A stretch of 64,000 bases of DNA from Candidatus Bipolaricaulis sibiricus (GTDB taxonomy: Bacteria > Bipolaricaulota > Bipolaricaulia > Bipolaricaulales > Bipolaricaulaceae). Under the pieces are notes generated by a model. It saw nothing but the letters and a program-made list of their open reading frames with translations, had not been told where the DNA came from and did not search any database. The stretch lies in the NCBI GenBank assembly GCA_004102645.1, contig CP034928.1:1106153-1170152 (forward strand). The letters run 5' to 3'. Within the stretch, counting starts at the first letter, position 1. The number at the start of each line of letters is the position of its first letter. Shown here piece after piece: positions 7,715 through 23,413 of this stretch. The translations under genes were made by a program, and so were the position numbers.

Positions 7715-8571
7715 CCGAAGGTTGGATCTGCGAAGAGCAATCCCCGGGAGTCCGATTGTGCCTGGAGGTGGAGGAGCCCCTCCTCCACCTGCGCACGACG
7801 TGCCAAGACCTTGCCCTCACCCGCACACGGGCGTTTGGGCGACTCCTCGCCCTCGACGGGCGGTACATGGTCACCGAACGCGACTGGCCCTTCTACCACG
7901 AGATGCTCGTCCATCCCGCCTTGCTCTCCCACGCGCGGCCGGAGCGGGTACTCGTCGTGGGCGGGGGCGACGGGGGCGCCGCGCGGTTGGCGCTCGAACA
8001 CCCCTCGGTGTCCACGGTGACCCTGGTGGAGATCGACCCCGGGGTCATCTCCGTGGCGCGGGCCCACCTCGCGTCCGTCCACGGTGGCGCCCTTGACGAT
8101 CCCCGCCTCCAGGTCGTGATCGCGCCCGCCGAGGAGTTCGTGCCCGCGCGGACCCGGGAGTTCGATGCGATTCTCGTCGACTCCACGGATCCCGTCGGAC
8201 CGGGGGAAGCGCTGTTTCGGCGCGCGTTCTGGACGGGGTGTGCCGCCGCTCTGCGGCCGGGGGGCATCCTCTCCCTCCAGGCCGGCGACCCGTTCTACCA
8301 TCCCGAGGTCCTCGCCGGAGCGATGGCCGGCCTGCGGGAGGTCTTCCCCGTGGTCATCCCCCACCTCGGGTTCGTCCCCAGCTACCCGTCCGGCCTGTGG
8401 GCGTACGTCTTGGCCGGGGATCGCTCCCTCGATGTGAAGGAATCCGTACTCGAGAAGAGGTTCCACAGCCGGCGGCTCACCACCCGGTACTACACCCCAC
8501 AACTCCACCGGGCGGCGGCGGTCCTTCCCCGGTTCGTGGACGAGATTGTGCGAAGCGAGGAGGCACGATGA
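7711..8571 (+). CDS. speE: Polyamine aminopropyltransferase (spermidine synthase)
   Basis: Motifs LLALDG, FYHEMLVHP, VLVVGGGDGG, LVEIDP, ILVDSTDP. GTGA overlap with the speD stop. Confidence 0.95.
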   Translation: MTEGWICEEQSPGVRLCLEVEEPLLHLRTTCQDLALTRTRAFGRLLALDGRYMVTERDWPFYHEMLVHPALLSHARPERVLVVGGGDGGAARLALEHPSVSTVTLVEIDPGVISVARAHLASVHGGALDDPRLQVVIAPAEEFVPARTREFDAILVDSTDPVGPGEALFRRAFWTGCAAALRPGGILSLQAGDPFYHPEVLAGAMAGLREVFPVVIPHLGFVPSYPSGLWAYVLAGDRSLDVKESVLEKRFHSRRLTTRYYTPQLHRAAAVLPRFVDEIVRSEEAR

Positions 8572-9389
8572 TCGGACCCCTGCGGTTCCTCGGATTGGAC
8601 ACTCCGTTCGCGGAGGCACGGGTGGTGCTCCTGGGCGTTCCCCTCGAGCGCACCGTGTCCTACCGCGGCGGCCCCGCTCAGGCTCCGACCGCCATTCGGG
8701 CGGCGTCGGACTCGATCGAGCTCTACTCCCACTTGTTCCGGTGCGACCTGAGCCGCATCGGGATCTGCGACCTGGGGGATGTCGACCCCCACCTCTCCAT
8801 GGCGGAGATGCTGCGCGCCACGGAACAGGAGGTGCGGCTTGCCCTCGATGCGGGGAAGGGGGTCGTTGTGCTCGGGGGGGAGCACACTGTGGCGCTGCCG
8901 GCCGTCCGGGCCGCAGCTCAGCCGGGCCCCATCCAGGTCGTTGCTCTCGACGCCCACACCGACCTCCGCAGGACGTACGGAGGGGAGCAGGTGGCGCACG
9001 CGACCGTGCTGCGGAGGGTTAGCGAGCTGGCGGAACGCCTTGTCATCGTGGGGGCGCGTTCGTTCGTTGGAGATGAGGTGGACGAGCCGTTCTTCGCCCG
9101 GCCTGAGGACGTCGCGCGCCGCCTCGATCCAGGGGTCCCCGTTTGGCTGACCCTCGACCTCGATGCGGTCGATCCCTCGCTCTGTGCTGGCGTGACCAAC
9201 CCCGAACCGGGCGGGCTCACCTACGCAGAGGTGATCGCGATCTTCCGCGATCTGGCACGGTTCAGGGTCGTGGGCATGGATCTTGTGGAGCTCGCCCCGC
9301 CGTTCGACCCGTCCGGGGTGTCGGCCGTTACCGCGGCCAAACTCGTGCTAGAGGCGATCGCCGCGTTCTGGGGTCCCGCGCCGAGATGA
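8568..9389 (+). CDS. speB: Agmatinase/ureohydrolase
   Basis: Mn-binding motifs GGEHTVA, LDAHTD and DLDAVDPS...PEPGGL. ATGA overlap with speE. Confidence 0.92.
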   Translation: MIGPLRFLGLDTPFAEARVVLLGVPLERTVSYRGGPAQAPTAIRAASDSIELYSHLFRCDLSRIGICDLGDVDPHLSMAEMLRATEQEVRLALDAGKGVVVLGGEHTVALPAVRAAAQPGPIQVVALDAHTDLRRTYGGEQVAHATVLRRVSELAERLVIVGARSFVGDEVDEPFFARPEDVARRLDPGVPVWLTLDLDAVDPSLCAGVTNPEPGGLTYAEVIAIFRDLARFRVVGMDLVELAPPFDPSGVSAVTAAKLVLEAIAAFWGPAPR

Positions 9390-9421
9390 TGGGGCTACCC
9401 GACCCGGAGAGGTGACCGACC

Positions 9422-9601
9422 ATGGATCAGACTCCGGCGAGCCCGGAGTCGCAGCCCCAGCGGGCAAGGCCGCTCCAGCAGCGCCACCGGGGGCAGACCG
9501 TGGTCCGCGAACCGCCCGGACAGAACTCGATCGGCCACCTACGACAATCCGCAGTTCGTGTGGGTTCGGTCGGCTCCCCCAAGACCGGCAGCGCCGCGTG
9601 A
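9422..9601 (+). CDS. Possible 59-aa small protein (MDQTPASPESQPQR...)
   Basis: Strong SD GGAGAGGTGA 6 nt before ATG 9422. No recognisable domain. Confidence 0.25.
   Translation: MDQTPASPESQPQRARPLQQRHRGQTVVREPPGQNSIGHLRQSAVRVGSVGSPKTGSAA
9430..9450. terminator. GC-rich hairpin after the polyamine operon
   Basis: GACTCCGG-cgagc-CCGGAGTC is a perfect 8-bp stem with no U-tract. Confidence 0.35.
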
Positions 9602-9661
9602 CTCCCCCCAGTGGGGGTTCAGCCGTTCCCACCCGCGGCCGGAGGCCCTCGTGGTCCGTCC

Positions 9662-10597
9662 TCACCCCGGCTGCGAGGGTGAGGACGCGCGGGACAGCAG
9701 CGCCTGAACGTCCGCGGAAGCCGGCAGGGAGGCGATCCCTCCCCGTCGCGAGGCGGCCACGGCCGCGGCTGCGGTGGCGTAGCCCAGCGCTTCGTATGGG
9801 CCCCTCCCCGCAGCGAGCTTCACGGCCAACGCTGCGCAGAACGTCTCGGTGGCCCCGGTGGCGTCCACGACGGGAACCGCGCGAGGCGGGAACCGTGTGA
9901 CCCCTGCCTGCTCCACGAGGTAAGCCCCCTCGATGCCGAGGGTGATCACCACGTTCCGCACCCCACGGTCGAGAAACGCCTGGCTCACCCGCGCTGCGTC
10001 CTCCGTCGTCCCACTTGTCCACCCGGCCTGGACCTCCAACTCGTCGCGGCTCCCGACCGCGAAGTCGACCCGCTCCCACGTCAGGGGCGACGGAGGGCGC
10101 GCCGCGATGGGATGGAGAACCACGACCGGTCGCTCCCGCGGCAGGGCGCTCAACACGGCCTGCAACGTCGCCAGGGGAGCAGCGAGGTCGAGGAGGACTG
10201 CGTCTGCATCCCGGATGCGACTGATGTGCCGGGTGACGTACTCCCCGTCGAGCATCGCGTTCGCCCCCGGCGCGTGCGCCGCCAACTGGTGCCGGTTGGG
10301 GCCCACGAACACGAGGGACGCCCCCGTCGGGGCGGCGGCAGAACGCTCCACGGCACTGGGGTTGACCCCCGCCGCGGACAGGGCGGCCACGACCTCGTCG
10401 CCAAATGGATCCGCGCCGACACAGCCGTACATGCTCACCTCGGCTCCCAGGCGCGCCGCTGCAATCGCCTGCAAGGTGCCTGCCCCGCCGGGTTCGCGAA
10501 CGAGACCGCGGCTGGAGACCGTCTCGCCCGGTCGAGGAAGCCGGTCCACCTCGGCACGGAGGTGGACATCGAGGGTCCCCAGCACCGCGACCCTCAT
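9662..10597 (-). CDS. PfkB/ribokinase-family protein with degenerate catalytic motifs
   Basis: Motifs PRPGETV, PGGAGTLQAIAAARLG, VVITLGIEGA and VDATGATETF (canonical DTTGAGDTF). Confidence 0.85.
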   Translation of the reverse strand: MRVAVLGTLDVHLRAEVDRLPRPGETVSSRGLVREPGGAGTLQAIAAARLGAEVSMYGCVGADPFGDEVVAALSAAGVNPSAVERSAAAPTGASLVFVGPNRHQLAAHAPGANAMLDGEYVTRHISRIRDADAVLLDLAAPLATLQAVLSALPRERPVVVLHPIAARPPSPLTWERVDFAVGSRDELEVQAGWTSGTTEDAARVSQAFLDRGVRNVVITLGIEGAYLVEQAGVTRFPPRAVPVVDATGATETFCAALAVKLAAGRGPYEALGYATAAAAVAASRRGGIASLPASADVQALLSRASSPSQPG

Positions 10598-11922
10598 AGC
10601 GTCACGGCCTCGTACCACTCAGCGACATGGGGCCGGAGGCGGTGGGACGCGAGCCGCTGCGCGAGCGACCCAAACGCTGGGGGCTCGCCGTGGACGAGGA
10701 ACACCTCGCTCGGATCGGCGTGAAGCGTCCAGTCTACGAGAATCGGGAGGTCGGCGTGAGCCGAGAGGCCCTCGATCTTGTGAACCGAGGCACGTACTGG
10801 AACGATCGAGCCCAGCACCTCAACCCGCGACGCCCCGTCCTCGATCTCCCGGCCGAGCGTTCCCACGGCCTGGTAGCCGACGAATACCAACGCCGACTCC
10901 GGCCGGGGGAGGTTGTCGCGGAGGTGGTAGAGAATCCGCCCTCCTGTGCACATCCCAGAACCCGCGATGATGATCGCCCCCGAGTTCTCCCCGATCTTCT
11001 TCGAAGCCTGCCGGGTGAGGGTGTACTCCAAGAGCTCGAAATCGAACGGGTCCTCGCGCTTCTGGAACAGACGGCGTGCCGGTGCCGGAAACCGCTCCGT
11101 GTACCGCTCGAAGATCCGCGTCGCCTGAGTCGCGAGCGGGGAGTCGAGGAAGATGCGGCACGCGGGAATGGACCGCTCGCGCCACATCCGGAACAGGAGG
11201 TACAGGACCTCCTGGGTCCGCTCGAGGGCAAACGAGGGGATGACCACGTTGCCACCGGCGTCCAACGTGTCGACGATCACGTTGCGGAGCTGGGTGACGG
11301 ACTCCTCCACCGGAGGGTGCTCGCGGTCCCCGTAGGTGGACTCGAGAACAACCACGTCCGCCTTGGGCGGGTACGACGGATCCTCCACCAGCGGCTTCCC
11401 GCGGTTCCCGAGGTCGCCGGAAAACACGACGGTCTTCCCCTCCGCACGCAGCTCCACGGACGCCGCTCCGAGGATGTGGCCCGCATCGTGGAACCGGACC
11501 CGCACATCCCCGCCCAGCCGCAGCTCCTCCCCGTATTCGAGGGGCGTCTGGAACAGGTCGACGGCGGCCACCGCATCGGCAGCCGTGTACAGAGCGGCCT
11601 CGCCTTCCTCCTCCTGAATCCGCGCCGCATCCATGAGCATCACGTGAGCGATGTCCCGCGTCGGAGGCGTGCATGCCCCTCGCCCGCGGAATCCCTCCCG
11701 CACCAGGCGGGGGATCAGGCCGAGGTGGTCGAGATGGCCGTGGGTGAGCAAGACCCAGTCCACCTCTTTGGGGTCGAACGGAAACGGGGCGCAGTTGCGC
11801 TCCTCGAGCTCCGGCAGGCCCTGGAACATCCCGCAGTCGACGAGGATCTGTTGACCGTCCGTCTCAACGTGGAAGCACGAGCCGGTGACCGTGCCCGCCG
11901 CCCCGGCGAAGGTCAGCTTCAT
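10594..11922 (-). CDS. MBL-fold metallo-hydrolase, beta-CASP RNA-processing family
   Basis: Motifs LTHGHLDH, AGHILG, FSGDLG, ESTYG, SAHAD, VHGE. Start MKLTFAGAAG overlaps the upstream stop. Confidence 0.93.
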   Translation of the reverse strand: MKLTFAGAAGTVTGSCFHVETDGQQILVDCGMFQGLPELEERNCAPFPFDPKEVDWVLLTHGHLDHLGLIPRLVREGFRGRGACTPPTRDIAHVMLMDAARIQEEEGEAALYTAADAVAAVDLFQTPLEYGEELRLGGDVRVRFHDAGHILGAASVELRAEGKTVVFSGDLGNRGKPLVEDPSYPPKADVVVLESTYGDREHPPVEESVTQLRNVIVDTLDAGGNVVIPSFALERTQEVLYLLFRMWRERSIPACRIFLDSPLATQATRIFERYTERFPAPARRLFQKREDPFDFELLEYTLTRQASKKIGENSGAIIIAGSGMCTGGRILYHLRDNLPRPESALVFVGYQAVGTLGREIEDGASRVEVLGSIVPVRASVHKIEGLSAHADLPILVDWTLHADPSEVFLVHGEPPAFGSLAQRLASHRLRPHVAEWYEAVTL

Positions 11923-13553
11923 CGGTCGGTGGTCGCCCGCACCCCGCGGGCGACGGCCGTTGCCTCGCACCGCGCACACGGTGGCCCGCCGAGATGGGCG
12001 GCAAACTCGTCCCGGAACCCGGCAACCGCGGTGCGCACGGGAAGCGCAACCGACTGCCCGAGGGGACACAGCGAGGCAGCGCGCATCGCATCCACGATGG
12101 AGACCATCTGGTTCAGGGTCCGGTCATCGGCCTGTCCGCACTGCAGGGCCGACACGAGCCGCACCAGCACATCCGTTCCGCTTCGGCAGGGAGCGCACTG
12201 CCCGCACGACTCGTGGCGGAAGAAACGCAGCACGCTCGACAGCATGTCCACCACGCACGCCGACTCGTCGAGGACAAGGACCGCGCCGGACCCGAGCGCA
12301 GCCGCACGCTCGGCAAGGGAGTCGAAGTCAAGACGAACGTCGAGCTCGCTCGTTGGAAGAAACGCGCCGGCGGCCCCTCCCACGAGCACGCCCTTCAGGC
12401 TCCGGCCGGGGAGAAGCCCACCCCCCAACTCGTAGATCAGGGCACGCAGCGGGGTTCCCATCTCGACCTCGACAAGCCCGGAGTACCGTACGTTCCCCAG
12501 AATGGTGTACACCTTCGTGCCCGGACAGGTTGCCGTGCCGAGAGCGCGATACCACGCCGGGCCGTGACGGACGATGTCGGGGACGTTGGCGAGCGTCTCA
12601 ACGTTGTTCACGACCGTCGGCTTTCCCCACAGGCCGTGGGTCACGGGGTAGGGTGGCTTCATCCGGGGCCAGCCGCGCTTCCCCTCGAGTGATTCGAGCA
12701 GCGCTGTCTCCTCGCCGCACACGTAGGCCCCGGCGCCAGGACGAACCTCGATCCGAAACGCAAAGTCCGTGTCGAACACGCGATCGCCGAGGATGCCCAA
12801 CGCTTCGGCCTGAGCGATTGCGCGCTGCGTTCGGGCAATCGATAGGCCGTACTCGCCCCGGATGTAGACAATGCCCACGTGGGCACCCACTGCGTACCCG
12901 GCGAGGGCCATCCCTTCGAGGAGTTTGTGCGGATCTCCCTCGAGAATGAGCCGATCCTTGAATGTCCCCGGCTCGCCTTCGTCGGCGTTGCAGACCACGT
13001 AGCGCTCCGGGTCGGCTGCCGTGCGCACGGCCGACCACTTGATCCCCGTCGGGAAGCCCGCCCCACCGCGGCCCCGCAGCCCCGACCGTTTCACGAGGTC
13101 GAGGACAGCCTCGGGAGCCAGCTCCGTGACCGCCGTGCCGAGGGCCTCGTACCCCCCTTGAGCGATGTACTCCTCGATGCTCTCTGGATCAATGATCCCG
13201 CAGTTGGCGAGGACAACCCGCGTCTGGCGACCCAGAACGTCGGCGGGTCGGGCCACGGGAGCCGTCGTGGGAAGGCGCAGCCGGGCCACCGGACGGCCCT
13301 TGAGAAGGTGCTCCTCGACGATCGTTCGCGCGTCGGCCGGTGTGACATGGGCGTAGTACACGCCGTCGGGCTGAACTGCGAGGACGATCCCGTGTCCAGA
13401 GACCCCGAGGGAACCCGTCTCGATGACCTGGACCTCCGACTCGAGGCCAAGCTCCGCGACGGCCGTGCGCAGTGCGGACAACACACCGTCCACGCCTGCC
13501 AACCGGGCTTCATCATCCACCCCGACCAACACGTGCGCCCGCGCCAGCCTCAT
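11919..13553 (-). CDS. NADH-binding flavoprotein subunit NuoF/HoxF-like, copy 2 (short, non-bifurcating-type signature)
   Basis: [53 protein letters not shown] and SLCPLG. The N-terminal ferredoxin domain has no Cys and there is no C-terminal 2x[4Fe-4S] domain. Confidence 0.92.
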   Translation of the reverse strand: MRLARAHVLVGVDDEARLAGVDGVLSALRTAVAELGLESEVQVIETGSLGVSGHGIVLAVQPDGVYYAHVTPADARTIVEEHLLKGRPVARLRLPTTAPVARPADVLGRQTRVVLANCGIIDPESIEEYIAQGGYEALGTAVTELAPEAVLDLVKRSGLRGRGGAGFPTGIKWSAVRTAADPERYVVCNADEGEPGTFKDRLILEGDPHKLLEGMALAGYAVGAHVGIVYIRGEYGLSIARTQRAIAQAEALGILGDRVFDTDFAFRIEVRPGAGAYVCGEETALLESLEGKRGWPRMKPPYPVTHGLWGKPTVVNNVETLANVPDIVRHGPAWYRALGTATCPGTKVYTILGNVRYSGLVEVEMGTPLRALIYELGGGLLPGRSLKGVLVGGAAGAFLPTSELDVRLDFDSLAERAAALGSGAVLVLDESACVVDMLSSVLRFFRHESCGQCAPCRSGTDVLVRLVSALQCGQADDRTLNQMVSIVDAMRAASLCPLGQSVALPVRTAVAGFRDEFAAHLGGPPCARCEATAVARGVRATTDR

Positions 13554-14008
13554 CGTCCCTCCCGATACCGAACGAGCGTCTCCCGAACTCGTTCTGGCGT
13601 GAGATTGCCGACAACCTCGTCGTCCACCATCATCACCGGCGCCACGCCGCACGCCCCCAGACAGCTCGTCAGTTCAAGCGTGAACGCGCCGTCTTCTGTC
13701 GTCTCCCCGATGTCCACTCCGAGAAGCCGGCGCAGCTCGTCGAGCGCTGACCACGCTCCCGCGAGATGGCAGTTCGGGGAATCGCAGAGACGGATGATGT
13801 GCCGACCCCGCGGCCTGAGGCTGAACATCGAGTAGAAGGTTGCCGCGTCGTGAACCGCAGACAGGGGCAGACCGACGTGGGCTGCAGCCAACACAAGGTC
13901 CGCCTCCGTCAGATGGTGTCCCGCGTTCGCCAGCTGAAGGTCATGGAGGAGCGCGAGCAGCGCCTCCGGCGAGCGCGGATGCTGGGCGGCGATCGCTTCC
14001 TTGGTCAT
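13550..14008 (-). CDS. NuoE/HoxE-like [2Fe-2S] subunit, copy 2
   Basis: ATFYSMF, CDSPNC and CLGACGVAPVM. Confidence 0.92.
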   Translation of the reverse strand: MTKEAIAAQHPRSPEALLALLHDLQLANAGHHLTEADLVLAAAHVGLPLSAVHDAATFYSMFSLRPRGRHIIRLCDSPNCHLAGAWSALDELRRLLGVDIGETTEDGAFTLELTSCLGACGVAPVMMVDDEVVGNLTPERVRETLVRYREGR

Positions 14009-14019
14009 CGGTCCTCCCT

Positions 14020-15801
14020 TCACCGCGGCTCCTTCTTCACCGCGTCGAATGGACAGACATCGAAGCACGCTCCGCAGAGGATGCACAGATCGTCAACGAT
14101 CCGGTACGGGGGTTTCCCCGCCTTCCCCTGGGCTGCTCCGGTGGGACAGGCCCGGCGGCAGGCGTCGCACCCCCGACACGCATCGGCAACAACCACGTAC
14201 CGAACGAGATTAGGACAAACACCTGCCGGGCACGATCGATCGCGGATGTGGGCTCGGTACTCGTCGGCGAAGTAGCGGAGGGTGGAGAGCACAGGGTTAG
14301 GCGCGGTCTGGCCAAGCCCGCACAGGGACGCCTTCTTCATCATCTCTCCGATTTCGACAAGGCGCGTGAGGTCCTCCTCCGTGCCCTGGCCCTGCACGAT
14401 TCGGTCGAGAATCCCGAGCATCATCTGGGTTCCCACCCGGCACGGAACGCACTTCCCGCAGGACTCATCAGCGGTGAACTCGAGGAAGAACCGCGCCATG
14501 TTCACCATGCATGCCGCATCGTCGAGGATGATCACCCCGCCCGAGCCCATGATCGCCCCATGCTGGGATAGCGAATCGTAGTCCACCGGGACGTCGAGGA
14601 GCGACGCCGGCAGGCACCCGCCCGAGGGTCCGCCGATCTGCACGGCCTTGAACTCCCGCCCCGCCGGAACCCCACCCCCGATGTCGAACACGAGCTCGCG
14701 GAGGGTGATCCCCATCGGGACCTCGACGAGCCCCGTGTTCCTGATCTTGCCCGCCAGGGCGAACACCTTCGTCCCCTTGCTCTTCTCGGTCCCCACCGCG
14801 GCGAACGCCTCGGGCCCGCGGAGGAGGATGTGGCGAACATTGGCATAGGTCTCGACGTTGTTGATGAGGGTCGGCTTGCCCCACAGCCCGCTGGTGGCGG
14901 GATACGGAGGGCGCGGCCGCGGCTCGCCCCGCCGGCCCTCGATCGAGGCGATGAGCGCCGTCTCCTCTCCACACACGAATGCCCCCGCACCGATGCGAAC
15001 TTCGACGTCGAACGAGAAGTCGGTCTCGAAGATGTTCGCTCCCAGCAACCCCAGCTTCCGCGCCTGCCCCAGCGCGGTCTGGATCCGCTGCACCGCCAAC
15101 GGGTACTCGGCGCGGACGTAGATGTACCCGTGCGTCGCTCCGACGGCATAGGCAGCGATTGCCATTCCCTCGACGATCGCGTGGGGGTCCCCTTCCAAGA
15201 TCGCGCGGTCCATGAACGCCCCCGGGTCACCTTCATCGGCGTTGCAGACCACGTACTTCGGCGTGCCGGCCGCGGCCCGGACGAGCTCCCACTTCGTGCC
15301 GGTGGGGAATCCTGCCCCGCCCCGCCCCCGCAGGCCCGACTCCCGGATCGCCGCAATCACCTCGTGCGGCGCGAGAGACGTGACCGCCTTGCCTAGGGCC
15401 TCATACCCGCCGGCAGCGATGTACTCGTCGACTTTCTCGGGGTCGATCGTTCCGCAGTTGCCAAGCACAAGCTTGACCTGGCGGGCGAAGAACGGGATCT
15501 CGGTGGGTCGGGGAGCGCCCTCGGTCCACAGCAGGCGCCGCACGGGGCGGCCCTTCAGAAAGTGCTCGGTCACGATCTCCGAGGCATCCTCCGGCTTGAC
15601 CCGCACGTAGAACGTGCCCTCAGGGTACACAAGCAGGACCGGACCCAGCTCGCAGGGCCCCATGCAGCCAGTCTCCACGATCTGCACCTCGTCAAGAAGG
15701 TTGTGGAGGCCGAGGGCTTCAAGGAGAGCCCGCCTCACTCCTTCGCTTCCTGAGGACTGACAAGCGGTTCCCGAGCAGAGAAGGACCTGAATGCGCCTCA
15801 C
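14020..15801 (-). CDS. NADH-binding flavoprotein subunit HydB/HndC/HoxF-like, copy 1 (full length)
   Basis: N-terminal CSGTAC...TGCMGPC; [13 protein letters not shown]; IGGPSGGC; [10 protein letters not shown]; CPAGVC; C-terminal [12 protein letters not shown] and [12 protein letters not shown]. Confidence 0.95.
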
Positions 15802-16226
15802 GGGCTCTCCCTCCCTCCCAGATAGGCTCGCAGGCGCCCAACGAGGGCCTCTGCGGCACGCCGCGTCCGCGGCGACAGGCCCTCACCCAGCGACAGGTCG
15901 CGCGCAGGGACAGTCACCAGCCACGCCTCCGGGGCGCGACCGAACAGGTGCTCCGCCCAGGCGAGAAGGCCGCGCGGAGTGAAGGCGTGGGTCAGGGCCG
16001 GTCGTTCTCCAGGCCGAATCTGCTCCCACCGCACGGGCCCGGACCCCACCCGCGAATCCACGAAGATGACGAGGTCAGCGACCGCAACCTGGGGGATCAG
16101 CTCCGGGGTCAGGTCTTGAGCGCCGACCACCTTCAGGTCGCCCGTGTTGGACAGACGGCTCGCGACCCACAACCCAACAGCATCGTCCCGCCGCAAGGGA
16201 TGACCAAGGCCGATGATGAGGATCAT
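15798..16226 (-). CDS. [NiFe]-hydrogenase maturation protease (HoxW/HycI-like)
   Basis: [27 protein letters not shown] and LGEGLS. Lies directly after the large subunit. Confidence 0.88.
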
Positions 16227-17653
16227 GCGCCCCGCACCACCTCGTCGAGCAATTCCCCATCGGGCCCGAACAGAACCACCTTCAGCGGCATCTGCCCCAC
16301 CGCGTGCACCGAGCACGACAGGCAAGGGTCATAGGCACGAATGCCGCCCTCCATGCGGTTCAGAAGACCCTCGGTGATCTTCTGGCCGTCAAGATAGCGG
16401 TGGGCGATCTGGGTCATCGTGCGGTTCATGGCGAGGTTGTTGTGGCCCGTGGAGACAATGAGGTTGACCCGCTCGATCATCCCGTGCTCGTCCACGGTGT
16501 AGTGATGGAAGAGCGTCCCGCGCGGCGCCTCGTGTACCCCAACCCCCTCGCGCTCGTTGATCCCGGCCTCGGCGCGCACGCGCGCGGACAGGATGTCGGG
16601 ATCATCGAAGTAGATCCGAATTCGCTCCAGCGCGGCGACGATCTCGATGAGCCGTGCGTAGTGGTAGTGGAACGAGCTCGTCACCGCCTTCCCACCCGCC
16701 GTGGCCCGGAACCGCGCGAGGGCTTCGTCTGCGAGCGGGGTTCCGATGTGGTCACAGCAGTTGAGACGGGCAAGGGGACCGACCCGGTACACACCGTCGG
16801 GATACCCCTGCTCCCGGTAGAAGGGGAACTTCAGGTACGACCACCCCTCCACGGCCTCCCCGATGTAGTCGAGGTAGCGTGCAGGATCGAGATGGTCGGC
16901 AACGACCGTTCGCTCGGCGTCCACGATCCGGATCCGGCCGTCGTGGTGCTCCCAGGCACCGTTCGCCCCGACCAGCGACAGGAACAACGACGGGAAGTCG
17001 CCGAACGACCGGACCTCATCAGCCCACGCCGGGATGCTCTTCTCGTACAGCGCGAGGGCGTCCGTGGCGATGCGCATTGCCTCGGGCAACTTGGCCGCCA
17101 GTCGGTCCCTGGCCTCTGGGGTCAGCGGAGAGCGCACGCCGCCCGGGACCGCCCACGCCGGGTGGACCCGTTGCTCGCCGAGCGCGGCGATGATCTCCTG
17201 GCCAAACGCCCGCAGACGGATCCCATCCAACGCCAGCTGCGGGTTCACCGCCGCCAGGCCAAACACGTTCCGCGTAGCGGGTTCCGAGTCCCAGCCCAAC
17301 AGGAGGTCGGGGGAGGACAGATGGAAGAACGACAGAGCATGGGATTGGACGAACTGCCCGAGGTTCATCAACCGGCGAAGCTTGTCTGCAGGTCGGGGGG
17401 GGCGTACCGCCAGAATCGCGTCGCCCGCCTTCGCCGAGCACAGAAGGTGCGAAACCGGACAGATTCCGCAGGTTCGCGCCGTGATGGCCGGCATCTCCCA
17501 CAGGGTGCGGCCACGGCAGAACCGCTCGAACCCGCGCCCCTCGGTGACGTGAAACCGGGCTCGGCTCACCTTGCCGGCGCGGTTGAGCTCCACCGTGATC
17601 AGACCGTGACCTTCGATTCGCGTTACGGGTACCTTGATCTCGCGCACGGGCAC
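16223..17653 (-). CDS. hoxH: [NiFe]-hydrogenase large subunit (group 3d-like)
   Basis: VTRIEGHG; L1 motif [10 protein letters not shown]; [11 protein letters not shown]; L2 motif [10 protein letters not shown] followed by a cleavable tail AVGQMPL. Confidence 0.97.
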
Positions 17654-17657
17654 CTCT

Positions 17658-18185
17658 CTAGCCGAACTTCAGGTCCGCGCCGGTAAGCTCAGGGCGCTTG
17701 CCGGCAAGGAGCGCCTGAAGGAATCTCCAGATGCGATCAGCGGACGGCGGGCAGCCCGGGATGAACCGGTCCACCTTGACGAAGGCGTGGATCGGAAGGG
17801 CCTGAGGGAGCATCTTGGGGACATCGCCCTCCTCGAGGCCCGGAATGTCCCCCTCGCCGTACACCTCCCGCAGCAGTTCCTCCCGTGGAATGGGGTTGCG
17901 GAGCGACGGAACATTGCCCGTTACCGCGCAATCGCCGAACGCGACGACGATCTTCGTCTTCCCCCGCATCTCCTCGAGCAGATGACGCTGCTCGCTGTTC
18001 CCGATCGCGCCCTCGACCAGGAGGACGTCGACGTCCTCTGGGTACTCCTTGATGTCCACGATCGGGGAGTAGACGAGGTCGACCTTCGCCGCCAACTCCA
18101 GCAGACGCTCGTCGAGGTCGAGGAACGACATGTGACAGCCCGAACACCCGGAGAACCACACCGAGGCAAGACGGACCTTAGGCAC
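17658..18185 (-). CDS. hoxY: [NiFe]-hydrogenase small subunit
   Basis: [30 protein letters not shown] and IPGCPP. Short form with the proximal cluster only. Confidence 0.95.
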
Positions 18186-18879
18186 GGGGCCTCCTTTCCG
18201 TGATCTCCGCAAGGACCTCGGGGCGCTTCTCCTGCTCAGCGGTCGCCTTCCCCTTCTCGAACAGCGCCCCCGTCGGGCAAGCCTGCACACACTTGCCGCA
18301 CCCAGTGCAGGTCCTCGACGTGCCCCACGGTTCCCCGAGGTCGGCCTCGACCAAGGTATGCACGCCCCGTCCGGCGAATCCCCAGGTGAACGCGCCCTCC
18401 ACATCCGCGCAGGCCCGAACACAGCGACCGCACAGGACGCACCGGTTGTGATCGAGCCCGTACTTGGCATGACTGACATCTACCCGCAGAGCAGGGAACC
18501 GATACGGGAAGCTCACATGGTCCATGCCCAGCTCGGTGGCGAGGTCCTGAAGCTCACAGTGTCCGTTTGACACGCAGAACGCGCAGATGTGGTTCCGCTC
18601 TGCGAACAGAAGCTCGAGCACCGTCCGACGGACCTCGGCCAGCCGGTCGGAGTGCGCGACCACGTCCAGCCCCTCCTGCGCAGGGGTGGCGCAGGCGGGA
18701 ACAAGCCGCCCGTTCCAGTTGCGAATCTCCACCAGGCACAGCCGACATGCGCCCACCGGGCACAATGCCTCCAAGTGGCACAGGGTGGGGATACGGATCC
18801 CCGCCTCGCGCGCGGCATCGAGGATCGTCTGCCCCGGTTGAGCCTGGACCGGGGTGTCATCAATGCGCAGGCTGATCAC
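18178..18879 (-). CDS. hoxU: Bidirectional hydrogenase Fe-S subunit (NuoG N-terminus-like)
   Basis: IPTLCH...GACRLC, HICAFC...C, CVLCGRCVRAC and CTGCGKCVQACP. Confidence 0.94.
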   Translation of the reverse strand: MISLRIDDTPVQAQPGQTILDAAREAGIRIPTLCHLEALCPVGACRLCLVEIRNWNGRLVPACATPAQEGLDVVAHSDRLAEVRRTVLELLFAERNHICAFCVSNGHCELQDLATELGMDHVSFPYRFPALRVDVSHAKYGLDHNRCVLCGRCVRACADVEGAFTWGFAGRGVHTLVEADLGEPWGTSRTCTGCGKCVQACPTGALFEKGKATAEQEKRPEVLAEITERRPRA

Positions 18880-19243
18880 CCTTCACCTCCCGCACTTCTA
18901 CCACACGCTCGGCAACCGGCCGTCCGTTGACAACGTGGTCAGCAACGATCCGCCGTGCGACCACCTCGTCCACCTCGCCGTAGATCGTGACTCGGCCTGG
19001 CTCGTGAACCTCGACGATCGGTTCCTGAGCGGCGAGCCCCTTCTCCCCGGTCTGGGTGACGATCACATCCCGCAGCTCGCGCCGGGCGACCTCATCCAGG
19101 ATCGCCCGCAGGGTCTGCCGGGCCCCGGCCGCGATGCCCGAGGTTCCCATCCCCACAACGACCTTGACCCGAGTGGCTCCACCCCGGAGACGGAGCTCGG
19201 CCTCCGCCCGTTCTCGGATCTTCCTTAGCTCATCGAGCTTCAT
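18860..19243 (-). CDS. Thioredoxin-like [2Fe-2S] ferredoxin homolog (HndB/HydD-like) lacking Cys ligands
   Basis: VVVGMGTSGIAAGA and QTGEKGLAAQEPIVEV occupy the positions of canonical GMGTCGIAAGA and TGCxGxC. Confidence 0.85.
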   Translation of the reverse strand: MKLDELRKIRERAEAELRLRGGATRVKVVVGMGTSGIAAGARQTLRAILDEVARRELRDVIVTQTGEKGLAAQEPIVEVHEPGRVTIYGEVDEVVARRIVADHVVNGRPVAERVVEVREVKGDQPAH

Positions 19244-19791
19244 CGCTCCTCCTTCAGCCCCGCAGCGTCCATACCTTCCCGAAGGCTCTGCTCCAAAAAA
19301 GAAAGCACCTCGGGGTGGGTCAGGGGGATGTCCCCGATGCGCTCACGGATCTCGTGCGTGCACAGCCGCCACGTCGTCTGATCATCGCTGAGCTCAACCG
19401 TAAACTCAACCCCGGGACTCGTGGCGATGAGGGGAACGAGCGTCCCCACGAGGTCCCCCAGCGGAGGGCGATCGGGGTGGTCCCAGCCGAACCGCGCGAC
19501 AACCCTGGTCCCCCGTTCGGGTCGCGGCTCCACGCAGCATGCCCCTCCCGTCCCCTCGGCGGTCTGGACGAGCAGGGGGAGGCCAAGGCCGATCTGAGCG
19601 CGGGGTTTCGTCGTGAAGAACGGGTCCGTGGCGCGGGCTCGCTGCGCCTCCGACATGCCAGACCCGTCATCGGAGACTTCGATCTGAAGAGCATCCCCTT
19701 TTCGGGCGACCGCAACGGTGATGTGGCGCGCCCCCGCCCGGAGGGAGTTCTCCACCAGGTCGGCCACGTGCATCGCCAGGTCCTCGATCAC
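19240..19791 (-). CDS. GHKL/HATPase_c ATP-binding protein
   Basis: DLVENSLRAGA, VSDDGSGM, DPFFTTK and IGLGL, with no HisKA domain. Confidence 0.88.
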   Translation of the reverse strand: MIEDLAMHVADLVENSLRAGARHITVAVARKGDALQIEVSDDGSGMSEAQRARATDPFFTTKPRAQIGLGLPLLVQTAEGTGGACCVEPRPERGTRVVARFGWDHPDRPPLGDLVGTLVPLIATSPGVEFTVELSDDQTTWRLCTHEIRERIGDIPLTHPEVLSFLEQSLREGMDAAGLKEER

Positions 19792-20261
19792 CCGCTGCCC
19801 TCTCGGATCTGGCGCAGGATCCGCTTCGTCTTCTTCGCGTCAAGTTTCCCGTGCACCTCTTCGTCCACCATCATCACCGGCGCAAGACCGCATGCACCCA
19901 GGCACCGCACCCCTTCCACCGTGAACAGGCCATCGGCCGAGGTCTGCCCCAGCCCCACGCCCAGTTCTTCGCGAATCGCCTTGAGGATGTGTTCCACGCC
20001 CCGCACATGGCACGCCGTCCCCAGGCACAGACGAAGGGTATGCCTGCCCACCGGCGAGGTGCGGAAGAAGTGGTAGAACGTGATCACACCCCGAACCTGG
20101 GACAGCGGAACGCCCAGTGCACGCGCCACCGCGGCTTGCGCCTCCGGAGGGATGTACCCCAGTTCACTCTGAACGCGGTGTAGGGCCTGGATGAGCTCCG
20201 ATGGCCTTCCAGCGTAGGGCTCGGTCAGTCTGGCCAGCTGGGCTTCGGTCGCTGCAGTCAA
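19788..20261 (-). CDS. NuoE/HydC/HoxE-like [2Fe-2S] subunit, copy 1
   Basis: GYIP, VITFYHFF, CLGTACHVRG and RCLGACGLAPVM. TTG start overlaps the PHP stop. Confidence 0.93.
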   Translation of the reverse strand: MTAATEAQLARLTEPYAGRPSELIQALHRVQSELGYIPPEAQAAVARALGVPLSQVRGVITFYHFFRTSPVGRHTLRLCLGTACHVRGVEHILKAIREELGVGLGQTSADGLFTVEGVRCLGACGLAPVMMVDEEVHGKLDAKKTKRILRQIREGSG

Positions 20262-21016
20262 CACTCCTCCTTTGTCTCTTGGCTTGGCCGTACCGCTCGG
20301 CCGCCGGCGTTCTGCACGGCCCTCCGCAGCTCGGCAAGCGATGGCTCTGCACACAGCAGCTCCGTCCACGCCCGGCCGATCTCGGTGGGATAGTGGGCGT
20401 CGGAGCCACGCAGGATCGCCCGCCCCTGCAGTTCAGGCCAGGCACGCACAGCGTCCGCGAGCCGGGTCCATGGCGCGATCTCCACGGCTTCTGGCCAGCT
20501 CCCGTCAGGAAGCAGCCCGAGCACGGCCAGGAGTCCCCCCGGGAGCCGATCGACATGAGCGGGGACGGCCATCCCTCCGCGGTCCTCGACCCGTCGCACC
20601 ACCTCCGACAGGGAGAGCGCCACCGGAGTCAGAAGGAGCCGCTCGACCCGCCGCACGATCTCTCCGTCCTCGTCCACCACAACCTGATCGCCAAACAGAT
20701 CCGGATCGCACGGGATGTCGGGGAGGCTCTGCTGCAACTCCTGTTCGAGCTGGAACGCGTGTTCCTCGTCCGCGAACACCGCCAGAACCTCGACTTCCTC
20801 TGCAGTCTGTATTTCCATTCCCAGCAAGACGACGGGTTCCCCCCCGGCAGCACGCCGCACGTACCGGCCGTTCTCGGCGGCATTGTGGTCGCACACTGCA
20901 ATGAGATCAAGTCGAGCCCGTCGCGCCTCGGCAACGATGCGCGCCGGCGACATCTCCAGGCTGGCGCACGGGGACAGCGTGGAGTGAATGTGGAGATCGG
21001 CGCGCCACCACCTCAT
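20258..21016 (-). CDS. PHP-domain protein
   Basis: ADLHIHSTLSPC, AVCDHN, PAHVDR and GSDAH. Confidence 0.92.
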   Translation of the reverse strand: MRWWRADLHIHSTLSPCASLEMSPARIVAEARRARLDLIAVCDHNAAENGRYVRRAAGGEPVVLLGMEIQTAEEVEVLAVFADEEHAFQLEQELQQSLPDIPCDPDLFGDQVVVDEDGEIVRRVERLLLTPVALSLSEVVRRVEDRGGMAVPAHVDRLPGGLLAVLGLLPDGSWPEAVEIAPWTRLADAVRAWPELQGRAILRGSDAHYPTEIGRAWTELLCAEPSLAELRRAVQNAGGRAVRPSQETKEEC

Positions 21017-21345
21017 GGGTAGAGGACGCGGTGCAGTCGTCCCGCGACCTCGAACGCCGCCGCGGGCGTCACAAGGAGGTTGACCCCCTCCGCCTCGGCT
21101 CGGGTGATCACGTCGGAGCTGGGGCGCAGACCGCGGGCGAACACGATTCCCGCTACGCCTCGCAGCTTCCCCACGGCCACCACGTTCAGGTGGCGCTGGT
21201 GCGTGATCCACAGATCGCCAGGTTGGGCATGAGCAAGGACGTCCGACAAGAGGTCGGAGCAGTAGCCACCCCGCACCTCTCGACCCAGATCGGGGGCGGC
21301 CAGTGGCTCCAATCCCAGGATCTCGACAATGGCCTGTAGCTGCAT
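21013..21345 (-). CDS. DRTGG-domain protein
   Basis: GGYCSDLLSDVLA...LWIT...NVVAV. GAGGAGG RBS. Confidence 0.85.
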   Translation of the reverse strand: MQLQAIVEILGLEPLAAPDLGREVRGGYCSDLLSDVLAHAQPGDLWITHQRHLNVVAVGKLRGVAGIVFARGLRPSSDVITRAEAEGVNLLVTPAAAFEVAGRLHRVLYP

Positions 21346-21354
21346 CCTACCTCC

Positions 21355-21804
21355 TCACAAGAACGGAATCCCGCGGAGGATGGTCGCTCGAACGACGGTT
21401 CCCTTGCCCACGCGCGATCGGATCTTGAACAAATCGGAGTTCTGCTCCATGTTGCTGATCCCCAACCCTGCCCCGAACCCCAGCTCGCGGGCCCAGTCGG
21501 GGGCGGTGGAGTAGCCGGGTTGGCTCGCGAGTTCAACATCGGCGATGCCCGGCCCGTCGTCAGAGAACAGGAGTTCGACCCGATCCTCTCGGACAAGGAG
21601 AACGATCCGCCCCCCGTTCGAGTAGAGCACGAGGTTCATCTCGCCCTCAAAGCAGATGATGCTCGCGCGAAGGACAACATCAGGGCTGACCCCCAGTGCG
21701 AGGAGCTCGCGGCGGACCTCGGTAGAGACCGTGCCCGCCCGTTCGAGATCACGGGCCGCCACTGGGTAGATCCGCCTAAGGACGAGGCGCGTCCGGGGAC
21801 CCAT
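21355..21804 (-). CDS. Anti-sigma-factor-like Ser/Thr kinase (RsbT/SpoIIAB-like ATP-binding protein)
   Basis: FEGEMNLVLY, SDDGPGIADV and GFGAGLGISNM. The start could be TTG 21810. Confidence 0.85.
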   Translation of the reverse strand: MGPRTRLVLRRIYPVAARDLERAGTVSTEVRRELLALGVSPDVVLRASIICFEGEMNLVLYSNGGRIVLLVREDRVELLFSDDGPGIADVELASQPGYSTAPDWARELGFGAGLGISNMEQNSDLFKIRSRVGKGTVVRATILRGIPFL

Positions 21805-22171
21805 CGTCAAGGGGCATCCTCTTGCGCTGCGCAGCCTCGACTCCCGCCTGGTAGAGAATGCCGCAGGCCTCGAACATGATCCGGCGGGTGGCGAGGAGGG
21901 GGATGCCGGTTCCAACCGCGTACGCAACCGTCGCCGCCGCCGGCACCTTCCCCCGCACAAACAGCACCGCGCACATGTTCATGACCTCGGCGACCCGGAC
22001 CACCTGGGGGGTGATCATCCCGGTGATCAGGAGAACACCCTCATCCTGCACCATCGCCAGGACGTCCGACAGAAGATCCGCCGCGAAGGCGCTGGTTACC
22101 TCCCGCTCGGCCTGATCCGCTCCCGTTACGAACCGTGCGTCGACGAGCTCAGCGATCTCTCGCAGCTTCAC
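21776..22171 (-). CDS. DRTGG-domain protein
   Basis: MKLREIAELVDA...AFAADLLSDVLA...LLITG...MFEACGILY. Confidence 0.85.
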   Translation of the reverse strand: MKLREIAELVDARFVTGADQAEREVTSAFAADLLSDVLAMVQDEGVLLITGMITPQVVRVAEVMNMCAVLFVRGKVPAAATVAYAVGTGIPLLATRRIMFEACGILYQAGVEAAQRKRMPLDDGSPDAPRP

Positions 22172-22180
22172 GTCTCCCCC

Positions 22181-23413
22181 TCACGATCCGAACTTCGGGC
22201 CGAGGTCGCAGTACCCGAGGAGCTGCGGCACAAGACGCCCCGAGAACCTCCCCAACCCTCCCCGACCCGCGGCCCGCTCGCCGAACTGCCGGCACGGGTC
22301 AGGCGGGACTGCCGGCCCGACGAACAAGACCGGAACCGGATCGGCCGTGTGTTCCTTGACGCGGGGAGGCGTGGTGTGGTCACCGGACACACACAGGTGC
22401 ACCTCGCTCCACGCCAGCGAGTCGGCGAGTAAGGCGAAGAACTCCTGATCCACACGTTCGATGAACGCCCGTTTGGCGGGGGCGTCTCCGTCGTGGGCGG
22501 CATTGTCCGTACCCTTGATGTGCGCGAACACGAAGTCGGCCCTTTCGATCGCGGAGACCACAGCGCGAGCCTTTGCCCCGAGGTCGGTCTTGAGGTCGCC
22601 CGTTGCTCCCGACACATCCAGCACACTCAGTCCGGCGAGCTTCGCCACCCCCTTGTACAAGGCCCCGCCCGCCACGCACGCGCCGCGGATCCCGTACTCC
22701 GCGGTGATCGGGCGGAGGTGAGGCATCACCGCCGCCCCGCGAAGGAGGACCGCGTTCGCCGGCCGCTCCCCCCGGCGGACCCGTTCCAGGTTGAGCGGGT
22801 GGTCGGAGAGCACCTCGTGGGCCCGCTGGGTGAACAGGTTGACCGCGTCCGCCGTCCTCTGGCCTGTCGGGTCGAGAGGCCGACAGCGCTCCACGGGCCG
22901 TCCTTCCTTGCGGGGGTCGGTATCGGACACCGCAGCTGATGCGCCAGGACCCCGCAGGAGGAGCGCCCCTCGGTGCTCGGTTGATGCCCGGAACTGAACC
23001 TCGACACCGAACTCCCGAAGGTCGATCTCGGCGATCGCCCGCTCCAGGGGCTTCCCATCCGCCAGTCGGCCAGCGCGGCGGTCGATGACGACGAGCTCCC
23101 CACTGCGCGGCTCGACCGTTGCGAAGTTGGCCCGGAAACAGACATCGCCGCCCCGAACGTCAAGGCCAATCCCCAGAGCCTCGAACGCTCCCCGGCCCGT
23201 GTACACCCGGAACGGATCGTAGCCGAAGATCGACAGGTGCGAGGTGTCCGAGCCAGGGCGCACACCGGGGGCCACGGGGTCCATCAGCCCGAGCGCCCCA
23301 CGACCGGCAAGATCGTCAAGCACGGGGGTGACCGCACGCTCCAGACAAGTCGCCCCGTCAAGATCGGTGGGTCGCCCCCCTAGCCCATCGAGGATCACCA
23401 GAATGCCCGGCAT
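22181..23413 (-). CDS. apgM: 2,3-bisphosphoglycerate-independent phosphoglycerate mutase (archaeal-type)
   Basis: ILDGLGGRP, PGSDTSHLSIFGYDP, HIKGTDNAAHDG, SGDHTTP and HTADPVP. Confidence 0.92.
   Translation of the reverse strand: MPGILVILDGLGGRPTDLDGATCLERAVTPVLDDLAGRGALGLMDPVAPGVRPGSDTSHLSIFGYDPFRVYTGRGAFEALGIGLDVRGGDVCFRANFATVEPRSGELVVIDRRAGRLADGKPLERAIAEIDLREFGVEVQFRASTEHRGALLLRGPGASAAVSDTDPRKEGRPVERCRPLDPTGQRTADAVNLFTQRAHEVLSDHPLNLERVRRGERPANAVLLRGAAVMPHLRPITAEYGIRGACVAGGALYKGVAKLAGLSVLDVSGATGDLKTDLGAKARAVVSAIERADFVFAHIKGTDNAAHDGDAPAKRAFIERVDQEFFALLADSLAWSEVHLCVSGDHTTPPRVKEHTADPVPVLFVGPAVPPDPCRQFGERAAGRGGLGRFSGRLVPQLLGYCDLGPKFGS

Follow-up and report, generated by a model that had tools for sequence, protein, structure and literature searches.

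A single [NiFe] hydrogenase operon of Candidatus Bipolaricaulis sibiricus encodes two different NuoE-NuoF pairs, which raises the question of whether, and how, one hydrogenase core is served by two NADH-flavoprotein modules. The operon is located in a 64,000-nucleotide stretch (contig CP034928.1 of assembly GCA_004102645.1, positions 1,106,153 to 1,170,152), here called the window, with a G+C content of 66-73%, and proteins 78-85% identical to its second flavoprotein, NuoF2, carry the source names Candidatus Acetothermia or Bipolaricaulota. We think it likely, on balance, that the single HoxUYH core works with both modules, module 1 (NuoE1 and NuoF1) being coupled to NAD+ and ferredoxin while module 2 (NuoE2 and NuoF2) uses NAD only. 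According to this proposal, there would be one [NiFe] core, HoxU-HoxY-HoxH with its own protease, a Bfu-type module 1 that depends on NAD+ and ferredoxin as in NiFe-HydABCSL of Acetomicrobium mobile, and an NADH-only module 2, in which the FMN/NADH pocket and the N3-type [4Fe-4S] cluster are intact and a [2Fe-2S] partner is present, while the ferredoxin-side clusters are missing. One transcript would yield both modules, and the core would be shared as two isoenzymes or in mixed oligomers, between which the data do not distinguish. The cell would then have two routes, one coupled, in which H2 reacts with both NAD and ferredoxin, and one uncoupled, in which NAD alone takes part, and could adjust in what proportion NADH and reduced ferredoxin are obtained from H2 or disposed of as H2.

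The best or near-best solved relative of HoxH, NuoF1, HoxU, NuoE2 and NuoF2 is the A. mobile NiFe-HydABCSL enzyme (PDB 7T2R and 7T30; Feng et al. 2022, PMC8880783). HoxH scores 529 bits against HydL of A. mobile (7t2r_D), 421 bits against the SH of Hydrogenophilus thermoluteolus (5xf9_D) and 357 bits against Mvh, and it contains the motifs [10 protein letters not shown] and DPCLSCSVH plus a C-terminal extension. The A. mobile operon likewise has HisK, HydD and protease genes, of which the HisK-type gene was assumed to act in maturation or regulation, and none of the three products is part of the purified enzyme (PMC8880783). That enzyme has five subunits with one BC pair, to which the window adds NuoE2 and NuoF2. 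The A subunits also differ, since HydA of A. mobile has 692 amino acids, an H-cluster-like remnant and the clusters A4 and A5, whereas the window has a subunit of the HoxU type with 233 amino acids, which aligns only to residues 4-208 of HydA (207 bits) and lacks the region that holds A5.

Published criteria separate the flavoproteins. In bifurcating beta subunits, the PG-x-F-x-D loop contains A/E and M, a Phe lies close to the FMN, and GGPSG and additional Fe-S domains are present, while NADH-only beta subunits have T/S, K/S/A and Tyr at these sites and no GGPSG (Losey et al. 2020, PMC7311640); a 2026 preprint on the Synechocystis Hox enzyme likewise names AFM, a single Phe and GGPSG as the signature motifs of bifurcating hydrogenases. 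The domain set of BfuB consists of the FMN/NADH 51K, SLBB and NADH_4Fe-4S domains and a C-terminal 2x[4Fe-4S] ferredoxin domain (Schut et al. 2022). The rule that the sequence-only reading of this DNA had given, AFM/GGPSG against TFK/GGA, agrees with Losey et al. (2020) and with the preprint, and NuoF1 and NuoF2 fall on opposite sides of it.

NuoF1 scores 851 bits against HydB of A. woodii (7q4v_B) and 849 bits against HydB of A. mobile (7t2r_B), and its Pfam domains are 2Fe-2S_thioredx, Complex1_51K, NADH_4Fe-4S and two Fer4 domains, in agreement with the BfuB set of Schut et al. (2022). Its flavin site has AFM, the Phe in GAGAF ([18 protein letters not shown]; [10 protein letters not shown]) and GGPSG (IGGPSGG), all of which belong to the bifurcating signature. 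The N-terminal [2Fe-2S] site (B5) retains four cysteines (CSGTAC...GCMGPC), the C-terminal domain contains two CxxCxxCxxxCP motifs, and an H-x5-CPAGVC stretch is also present, so that the features first described for NuoF1, the Cys-complete N-terminal domain, CPAGVC and the C-terminal 2x[4Fe-4S] domain, are all recovered by Pfam and motif searches. The ligands of the B2/Zn site are in register with C438, H525, C531 and C536 of A. mobile (AACMVNM, [13 protein letters not shown]). At the position of A. mobile C476, NuoF1 has a Gln; about two-thirds of the BfuB sequences have a Thr at this site (Schut et al. 2022). Judged by its sequence, NuoF1 lacks none of the marks that have been published for bifurcating HydB/BfuB subunits. 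The other parts expected of a Bfu enzyme are present as well, namely the [2Fe-2S] subunit NuoE1, HoxU as an A-type Fe-S subunit and the HoxY/HoxH [NiFe] SL dimer. Module 1 and the core are thus predicted to be a further member of the known NiFe-Bfu kind, NAD+/ferredoxin-bifurcating and with a short A subunit.

This prediction bears on the name of the enzyme, which both the sequence-only reading and published reconstructions of Bipolaricaulota call 'Hox', where the latter mention it at all. The name is only half right: HoxU fits it and passes the NCBIfam HoxU equivalog model (345.6 bits, cut-off 333), whereas NuoF1 and the HisK and HydD genes are of the HydABC or NiFe-HydABCSL (Bfu) type. The group 3d Hox enzymes (Synechocystis HoxEFUYH and the H. 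thermoluteolus SH, 5XF9) follow the common logic of a diaphorase joined to a [NiFe] dimer. However, their operons contain only one EF pair and neither HisK nor HydD, while the window has two EF pairs and both of its flavoproteins fall outside the HoxF clade; only HoxU fits its equivalog model. NiFe-Bfu hydrogenases have been reported only from Synergistetes and Halorhabdus (Schut et al. 2022), and the window would extend them to the Bipolaricaulota.

NuoF2 is a protein of 544 amino acids that starts from an ATG at 13553, overlapping the stop codon of NuoE2. It contains GEPGTFKD and GGAAG, as had been claimed for it, as well as GAGAYVCGEE, and thus has TFK, a Tyr and no GGPSG. Together with its fewer Fe-S domains, these residues agree with the description of NADH-only subunits by Losey et al. 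(2020). The statement that both accessory Fe-S domains are missing held only in part. The Fer4 or C-terminal 2x[4Fe-4S] domain is absent according to Pfam, but the N-terminal domain is present and merely Cys-less: the alignment places residues 1-95 on the thioredoxin-like domain of HydB from A. mobile, and the predicted structure shows the same fold for them, while all four cysteines of the domain are substituted. The closest solved relative is A. mobile HydB (570 bits, aligned residues 2-528). Among the BfuB clusters, ligands remain only for B1 and for the B2/Zn site, and NuoF2 has neither the full set of five clusters nor the AFM/Phe/GGPSG marks. The B2/Zn site, composed of one His and three Cys residues (C433, H520, C526 and C529), was modeled as a [2Fe-2S] cluster in A. 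mobile (PMC8880783) and as a zinc ion in T. maritima (PMC9499530).

The AlphaFold model of NuoF2 (pLDDT 83.7) matched HydB-type chains in Foldseek over approximately 530 columns, with a core that agrees with 7t2r_B at 1.9 Å. At the level of the model, the HydB/Nqo1 fold and the N-terminal domain are confirmed, while the assembly is a matter on which it is silent. Across 44 F2-family proteins, T197, K199, Y277, A394 and the four cysteines that belong to the N3/B1 cluster do not vary, which indicates that the catalytic NADH-FMN-[4Fe-4S] path is conserved. The His and three Cys residues occur together in 30 of the 44 proteins and are jointly lost in the remaining 14. NuoE2 retains four cysteines and is closest to HydC of A. 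mobile (7t2r_C, 119 bits). Module 2 therefore appears to be a complete NADH-FMN-[4Fe-4S]/[2Fe-2S] unit that is predicted from its flavin pocket to be non-bifurcating and NADH-only, with the addition of a His site typical of bifurcating subunits. We also considered NADP specificity, which would make the pair an Nfn-like unit, but CGEETAL, a motif that may mark NAD specificity, is kept in both NuoF1 and NuoF2.

To place both NuoF copies, a check that the sequence-only reading had proposed, we inferred a neighbor-joining tree, a distance method, from 402 core columns of 60 NuoF-type sequences labeled by gene context. NuoF1 clusters with the four structurally solved Bfu subunits and with every NuoF1 from loci that contain both pairs, in a Bfu clade without HoxF (bootstrap 65), and the split that separates the Bfu subunits and the cyanobacterial-type HoxF from the rest has a bootstrap value of 86. 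NuoF2 belongs to a different clade. Its core consists of nine sequences (bootstrap 74): NuoF2 of the Bipolaricaulota loci and of locus L088, NuoF2 of two loci with both pairs and an [FeFe] hydrogenase, two sole flavoproteins of [FeFe] operons and one stand-alone copy. The wider F2 clade of 15 sequences has a bootstrap of just 3-9 of 100, and the deep nodes are weak. The HoxF clade (Cyanobium L033, L027) excludes both NuoF1 and NuoF2, and the formate-dehydrogenase-linked and complex I NuoF proteins fall outside the NuoF2 clade. The short Syntrophomonadaceae-type subunits (L017-L019) form a neighboring but separate clade, again with weakly supported deep nodes; the tree includes these homologs from metagenome-assembled genomes and not the characterized subunits of Syntrophomonas wolfei and Syntrophus aciditrophicus. 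NuoF1 and NuoF2 are 54.7% identical in the core. NuoF2 thus belongs to a distinct clade of considerable age and did not arise as a recent NuoF1 copy, and a recent tandem duplication of NuoEF is ruled out by the core identity and by the different old clades.

Homologous operons with both modules, the existence of which had been raised as a question along with the first description, are widespread. The related loci (numbered with L) were collected from homolog look-ups and a genome scan with an F2 alignment that was dominated by complex I NuoF; approximately 12 of the 80 scanned loci were informative, and all counts refer to the matches listed and are not frequencies. The block E1-HisK-HydD-F1-E2-F2 was identified beside a single catalytic subunit in at least 11 loci from at least six phylum-level lineages (dual loci), of which six are [NiFe] loci in three gene orders and five are [FeFe] loci. 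The [NiFe] operon of the window recurs in L001 (Bipolaricaulota J31, without the protease), L007 and L091, while the order is E1-HisK-HydD-F1-U-Y-H-W-E2-F2 in L088 and E2-F2-E1-HisK-HydD-F1-A-Y-H-W in L015 (Anaerolineaceae). The [FeFe] dual loci have the order E1-HisK-HydD-F1-E2-F2-HydA and comprise L005, L008 (Cloacimonetes), L009 (Elusimicrobia), L011 (Caldisericota) and L012 (Verrucomicrobiota). For ten dual loci, the pairwise identities of NuoF1 are correlated with those of NuoF2 (r=0.96), and those of NuoF2 with those of HydD (r=0.93). For example, [FeFe] L005 and the four [NiFe] loci of the window clade (window, L001, L007 and L088) are 67-70% identical in NuoF1, 58-62% in NuoF2 and 63-66% in HydD, whereas the Fe-S domain of the A-subunit is just 30-45% identical between [NiFe] and [FeFe] loci. 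The high similarity of NuoF1, NuoF2 and HydD and the divergent A-subunit indicate that the two-pair block was inherited as a unit and recombined with either catalytic module.

Both pair types are also found on their own. The F1-type alone suffices in A. mobile (PMC8880783), and the F2-type pair is found alone before an [FeFe] HydA, in the order HisK-HydD-E2-F2-HydA, in L003, L089 and L092. In L010 (Bacillota), an F2-type protein is the sole NuoF before an [FeFe] HydA (HydD-NuoE-NuoF-HydA). Side-by-side hydrogenases in L003, L089 and L092 have their own HydA each, but the dual loci have one catalytic subunit only. Each pair type is thus the sole module elsewhere, the dual loci have one catalytic subunit and neighboring independent hydrogenases have one each, and these facts are most simply explained if one core is served by both modules. 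Locus L090 points in the same direction. Here, the core of NuoF1 and NuoE2 are gone from an otherwise identical Bipolaricaulota-type [NiFe] operon, and a single intact F1::F2 chimera (P0061, 8241-9848) is F1-like with four cysteines in the first approximately 120 residues and F2-like from about residue 185. The chimera is known from one 11-kb contig only. Since the longest exact word common to the NuoF1 and NuoF2 genes of the window is merely 20 nt, assembly collapse is not an obvious cause of it.

Alternatively, both pairs may be obligate parts of one fixed hetero-oligomer, either as a dimer of E1F1 and E2F2 protomers or with E2F2 docked on E1F1-HoxU, in which the NADH-only flavin would be wired electronically or allosterically to the bifurcating flavin and there would be no independent isoenzymes. 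Each gene is present as a single copy in a translationally coupled string, the six-gene block recurs in several phylum-level lineages with both catalytic kinds and with the correlated identities described above, and the solved Bfu hydrogenases are dimers of protomers or tetramers (PMC8880783; PMC9499530). In addition, NuoF1 of the dual loci L005, L009 and L011 lacks the C-terminal 2x[4Fe-4S] domain, and these enzymes are not plain HydABC copies. On the other hand, each pair is found alone with a hydrogenase elsewhere and L090 has lost the core of NuoF1 and NuoE2 with the reading frames intact, which suggests that neither pair needs the other, and the cofactors of the two A. mobile protomers are more than 40 Å apart (PMC8880783). 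We consider this alternative possible but unlikely. A more specific and tentative idea, which we regard as rather improbable, is that the six-gene block is an obligate two-flavin diaphorase with the bifurcating and NADH-only flavoproteins on one Fe-S wire to the single catalytic subunit. If true, it would define a distinct, widespread class of [FeFe]/[NiFe] hydrogenases in which NADH-ferredoxin-H2 coupling is tunable or gated within one complex.

The proteins from L005 (7875-9473), L009 (7949-9538) and L011 (7940-9535) are 554-561 amino acids long and have AFM or AYM, the Phe and four N-terminal cysteines, as well as GGPSG where the motif scan matched (L009 and L011). Without the C-terminal domain in these NuoF1 proteins, neither flavoprotein at these loci has the clusters that are usually taken as the ferredoxin site.

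It could also be that NuoE2F2 does not work with this hydrogenase, but is a free NADH dehydrogenase module or has a partner whose genes lie elsewhere (for example, a formate dehydrogenase or a system for oxygen detoxification), and is merely co-transcribed. Unrelated beta-CASP, PfkB and iPGM genes are part of the string, so that co-transcription alone does not prove a common function, and in many genomes NuoF relatives work with formate dehydrogenases. Moreover, L087 (Dictyoglomus-like) has a stand-alone pair of the E2F2-type (8543-10635), far from any hydrogenase gene and adjoining a desulfoferrodoxin gene and a flavodiiron-like (Lactamase_B/ODP) gene, which hints at an NADH-linked, oxygen-detoxifying role of such pairs in some lineages. 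However, the F2-type gene is in a hydrogenase operon at 16 of the 18 F2-type loci examined (including the window and the chimeric L090, with duplicate contigs excluded), and it is located immediately beside HydA in the [FeFe] loci. As noted above, the formate-dehydrogenase-linked NuoF proteins belong to other clades. A formate dehydrogenase, which had been named as a possible partner, was sought within the window by tblastn with FdhA, [FeFe] HydA and HoxH, but only the known genes were found, and there are no other hydrogenase or formate dehydrogenase genes in the 64 kb, which would place any such partner elsewhere in the genome. We regard a separate partner as improbable. In L013 (Candidatus Moduliflexus), an F2-type NuoF without an adjacent NuoE2 is separated by approximately 2.4 kb from a Bfu-type [FeFe] HydCBA operon, to which it is oriented divergently.

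The ratios of nonsynonymous to synonymous substitution rates (dN/dS) between the window and L007 are 0.12 for NuoE2, 0.11 for NuoF2, 0.10 for NuoE1 and 0.10 for NuoF1, and the E2F2 pair is under purifying selection. This low ratio, the invariant FMN, NADH and N3-cluster residues in the 44 family members, the old and distinct clade and the use of the F2-type as the sole flavoprotein in some hydrogenase operons all argue against the idea that NuoE2F2 is a decayed, non-catalytic duplicate or a redox sensor that reports NADH/NAD+ to the regulatory proteins of the operon. The loss of the N-terminal cluster and the C-terminal domain would fit with decay, and the several regulatory genes in the operon with a sensor, but we find this explanation very hard to credit.

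Transcripts of the pair were detected, contrary to the concern that it might not be expressed. Three groundwater metatranscriptome runs contain 38-53% of the words of the operon, contigs with at least 99% identity cover NuoF2 in three runs, and NuoE2 is also covered. One RNA contig crosses the junction of NuoF1 and NuoE2, and two cross the junction of NuoF2 and the beta-CASP gene. The sequence-only reading had suggested that the core swaps between a bifurcating and an NAD-only module depending on the H2 pressure. The sharing of one core by two modules is plausible, but control by H2 pressure found no support. Both pairs belong to a single string with translational coupling and share transcripts with their neighbors, so that switching at the level of expression is unlikely, and the absence of the HydS-like sensor of the [FeFe] loci from the regulatory set of the window also counts against such a switch.

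Several observations weigh against the proposal that module 2 is an NADH-only partner of the shared core. While the gene layout, the motifs, the clade membership, the conserved dual block, the purifying selection and the presence of transcripts are shown, the docking of module 2 on HoxU, its NADH-only nature and the sharing of the core are inferred. NuoF2 retains the His of the B2/Zn site, although this conserved residue is missing in non-bifurcating HydB homologs according to Schut et al. (2022). The 2026 preprint describes that the Synechocystis Hox enzyme bifurcates without C-terminal clusters, and the absence of these clusters alone thus proves little. The stand-alone pair in L087 indicates that such a pair can be encoded apart from hydrogenase genes, and the sample of loci is small and non-random. 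Finally, the apparent depth is approximately 5-37 over hoxUYH but 0-13 over NuoF1, NuoE2 and NuoF2 (runs X7, X9 and X10; window 14020-19163), in assembled metatranscriptome contigs for which depth is rough and DNA carry-over is possible. The drop downstream of hoxUYH could reflect polarity, processing or assembly noise, and it is conceivable that the beta-CASP nuclease is the processing enzyme for the transcript of the string.

Flavoproteins with some of the characters of NuoF2 have been described in other settings. The non-bifurcating [FeFe] enzymes Hyd1ABC of S. wolfei and HydAB of S. aciditrophicus (PMC7311640) have the same diagnostic residues and also lack the extra clusters. However, NuoF2 differs from them in that it keeps the Cys-less N-terminal domain and the His and three Cys site, in that its catalytic partner would be a [NiFe] enzyme and in that a bifurcating-type pair is also present. 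Similarly, sub-type II BfuABC of the Hydrogenedentota was predicted to have a BfuB without the B5 and B3/B4 domains, which the authors read as non-bifurcating (Zheng and Huang 2024, PMC11406978), but it is encoded in a separate [FeFe] cluster with its own BfuA and not as a second pair inside a bifurcating operon. NiFe-Bfu hydrogenases and NADH-only variants of HydB are thus already known, while the conserved two-pair HydB/NuoF block seems to be new, since the literature that could be searched yielded no account of it.

How electrons are split at the single FMN of Bfu-type enzymes is still debated, and the C-terminal clusters, the B2 or Zn site and the flavin-pocket residues are the candidates. 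The window and its ten relatives place a bifurcating-type flavoprotein beside one of the NADH-only type on one catalytic core. They come with natural intermediates, such as NuoF2 with the His and three Cys site kept and three clusters lost, the NuoF1 of [FeFe] loci without C-terminal clusters and the F1::F2 chimera, and as a set they could be compared to test which features are responsible for bifurcation. With this arrangement, slow-growing acetogens or fermenters of the subsurface would be able to tune the amounts of reduced ferredoxin and NADH gained from or spent on H2.

The order and coupling of the genes from NuoE1 to NuoF2 agree with the first description, as judged from open reading frames, Pfam domains and junction overlaps, but the tightly packed string reaches past both ends of the interval first reported, by five genes upstream and two downstream. 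It comprises 17 minus-strand genes from 23413 to 9662, in which each junction either overlaps or has a gap of at most 11 nt. The genes were called as open reading frames, with inspection of start codons and ribosome-binding sites and scans against Pfam and NCBIfam.

Genes of the packed string in the 64-kb window, listed from its upstream to its downstream end.
Feature	Position	Strand	Basis
iPGM-like metalloenzyme (context; gene 1 of the string)	22181..23413	-	Pfam PhosphMutase + Metalloenzyme
DRTGG-domain protein (regulatory set)	21776..22171	-	Pfam DRTGG, weak
HATPase_c / anti-sigma-like kinase (regulatory set)	21355..21804	-	Pfam HATPase_c
Second DRTGG-domain protein	21013..21345	-	Pfam DRTGG
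PHP-domain protein	20258..21016	-	Pfam PHP + PHP_C
NuoE1 / HydC-type [2Fe-2S] subunit, module 1	19788..20264	-	Pfam 2Fe-2S_thioredx 4e-51; four Cys
HisK-like HATPase	19240..19791	-	Pfam HATPase_c
HydD/HndB-like protein	18860..19243	-	Pfam none; weak match to 2Fe-2S ferredoxin
HoxU-type Fe-S subunit (short BfuA/HydA equivalent)	18178..18879	-	NCBIfam HoxU equivalog
HoxY / HydS [NiFe] small subunit	17658..18185	-	Pfam Oxidored_q6
HoxH / HydL [NiFe] large subunit	16223..17653	-	closest solved relative 7t2r_D; motifs
Maturation protease HoxW/HydP	15798..16226	-	NCBIfam TIGR00072 61.5 bits (cut-off 47.45)
NuoF1 / HydB1, predicted bifurcating-type flavoprotein, clusters B1-B5	14020..15801	-	Pfam, motifs, tree
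NuoE2 / HydC2 [2Fe-2S] subunit, module 2	13550..14008	-	Pfam 2Fe-2S_thioredx 1e-41; four Cys
NuoF2 / HydB2, predicted NADH-only-type flavoprotein	11919..13553	-	Pfam, motifs, tree, predicted fold
beta-CASP metallo-beta-lactamase nuclease (context)	10594..11922	-	Pfam Lactamase_B + Beta-Casp + RMMBL
PfkB-family kinase (context; last of the string)	9662..10597	-	Pfam PfkB

At ten junctions of the string, neighboring genes share ATGA, GTGA or slightly longer overlaps. ATGA or GTGA overlaps are located between NuoE1 and HisK, HisK and HydD, HoxH and HoxW, HoxW and NuoF1, and NuoE2 and NuoF2, with further ATGA overlaps between the PHP and DRTGG genes, NuoF2 and the beta-CASP gene, and the beta-CASP and PfkB genes. 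The overlaps are 20 nt between HydD and HoxU and 8 nt between HoxU and HoxY, and there are gaps of 4 nt between HoxY and HoxH, 11 nt between NuoF1 and NuoE2 and 9 nt between the iPGM-like and DRTGG genes. Scans of the DNA for promoters and terminators were uninformative, with zero promoters and six terminator-like sites against 6.3 expected. The HydD/HndB-like protein contains no Cys and is 39-89% identical across the dual loci.

A DRTGG gene is located upstream of the hydrogenase operons also in L001, L005 and L007-L012, and the HATPase_c kinase is syntenic in related loci. In L008, L046, L089 and L092, a gene for a HydS-like sensory [FeFe] hydrogenase is placed between the kinase and the second DRTGG gene. 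It is absent from this position in the window (21013-22171), where the gap is 9 nt. The iPGM-like gene, which is of the archaeal, cofactor-independent type, holds the equivalent position in L088, L090 and L091, and this conservation suggests that it is part of the unit rather than a glycolytic neighbor.

In several [FeFe] loci, NuoF-GltD fusions of approximately 1,013-1,025 amino acids adjoin HydA (L003 13900-16959, L012 6444-8078 onward, L089 12929-16006 and L092 12955-16014), and in L012 the fusion occupies the place of NuoF1 in the dual block. The beta-CASP nuclease follows NuoF2 in L001, L007, L090 and L091, and not in L088 or the [FeFe] loci. The NCBIfam models that score highest for this RNA-type nuclease, Cas14 type VII and aCPSF1, remain well short of their cut-offs. 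Like the window, L007 and L091 contain the PfkB gene.

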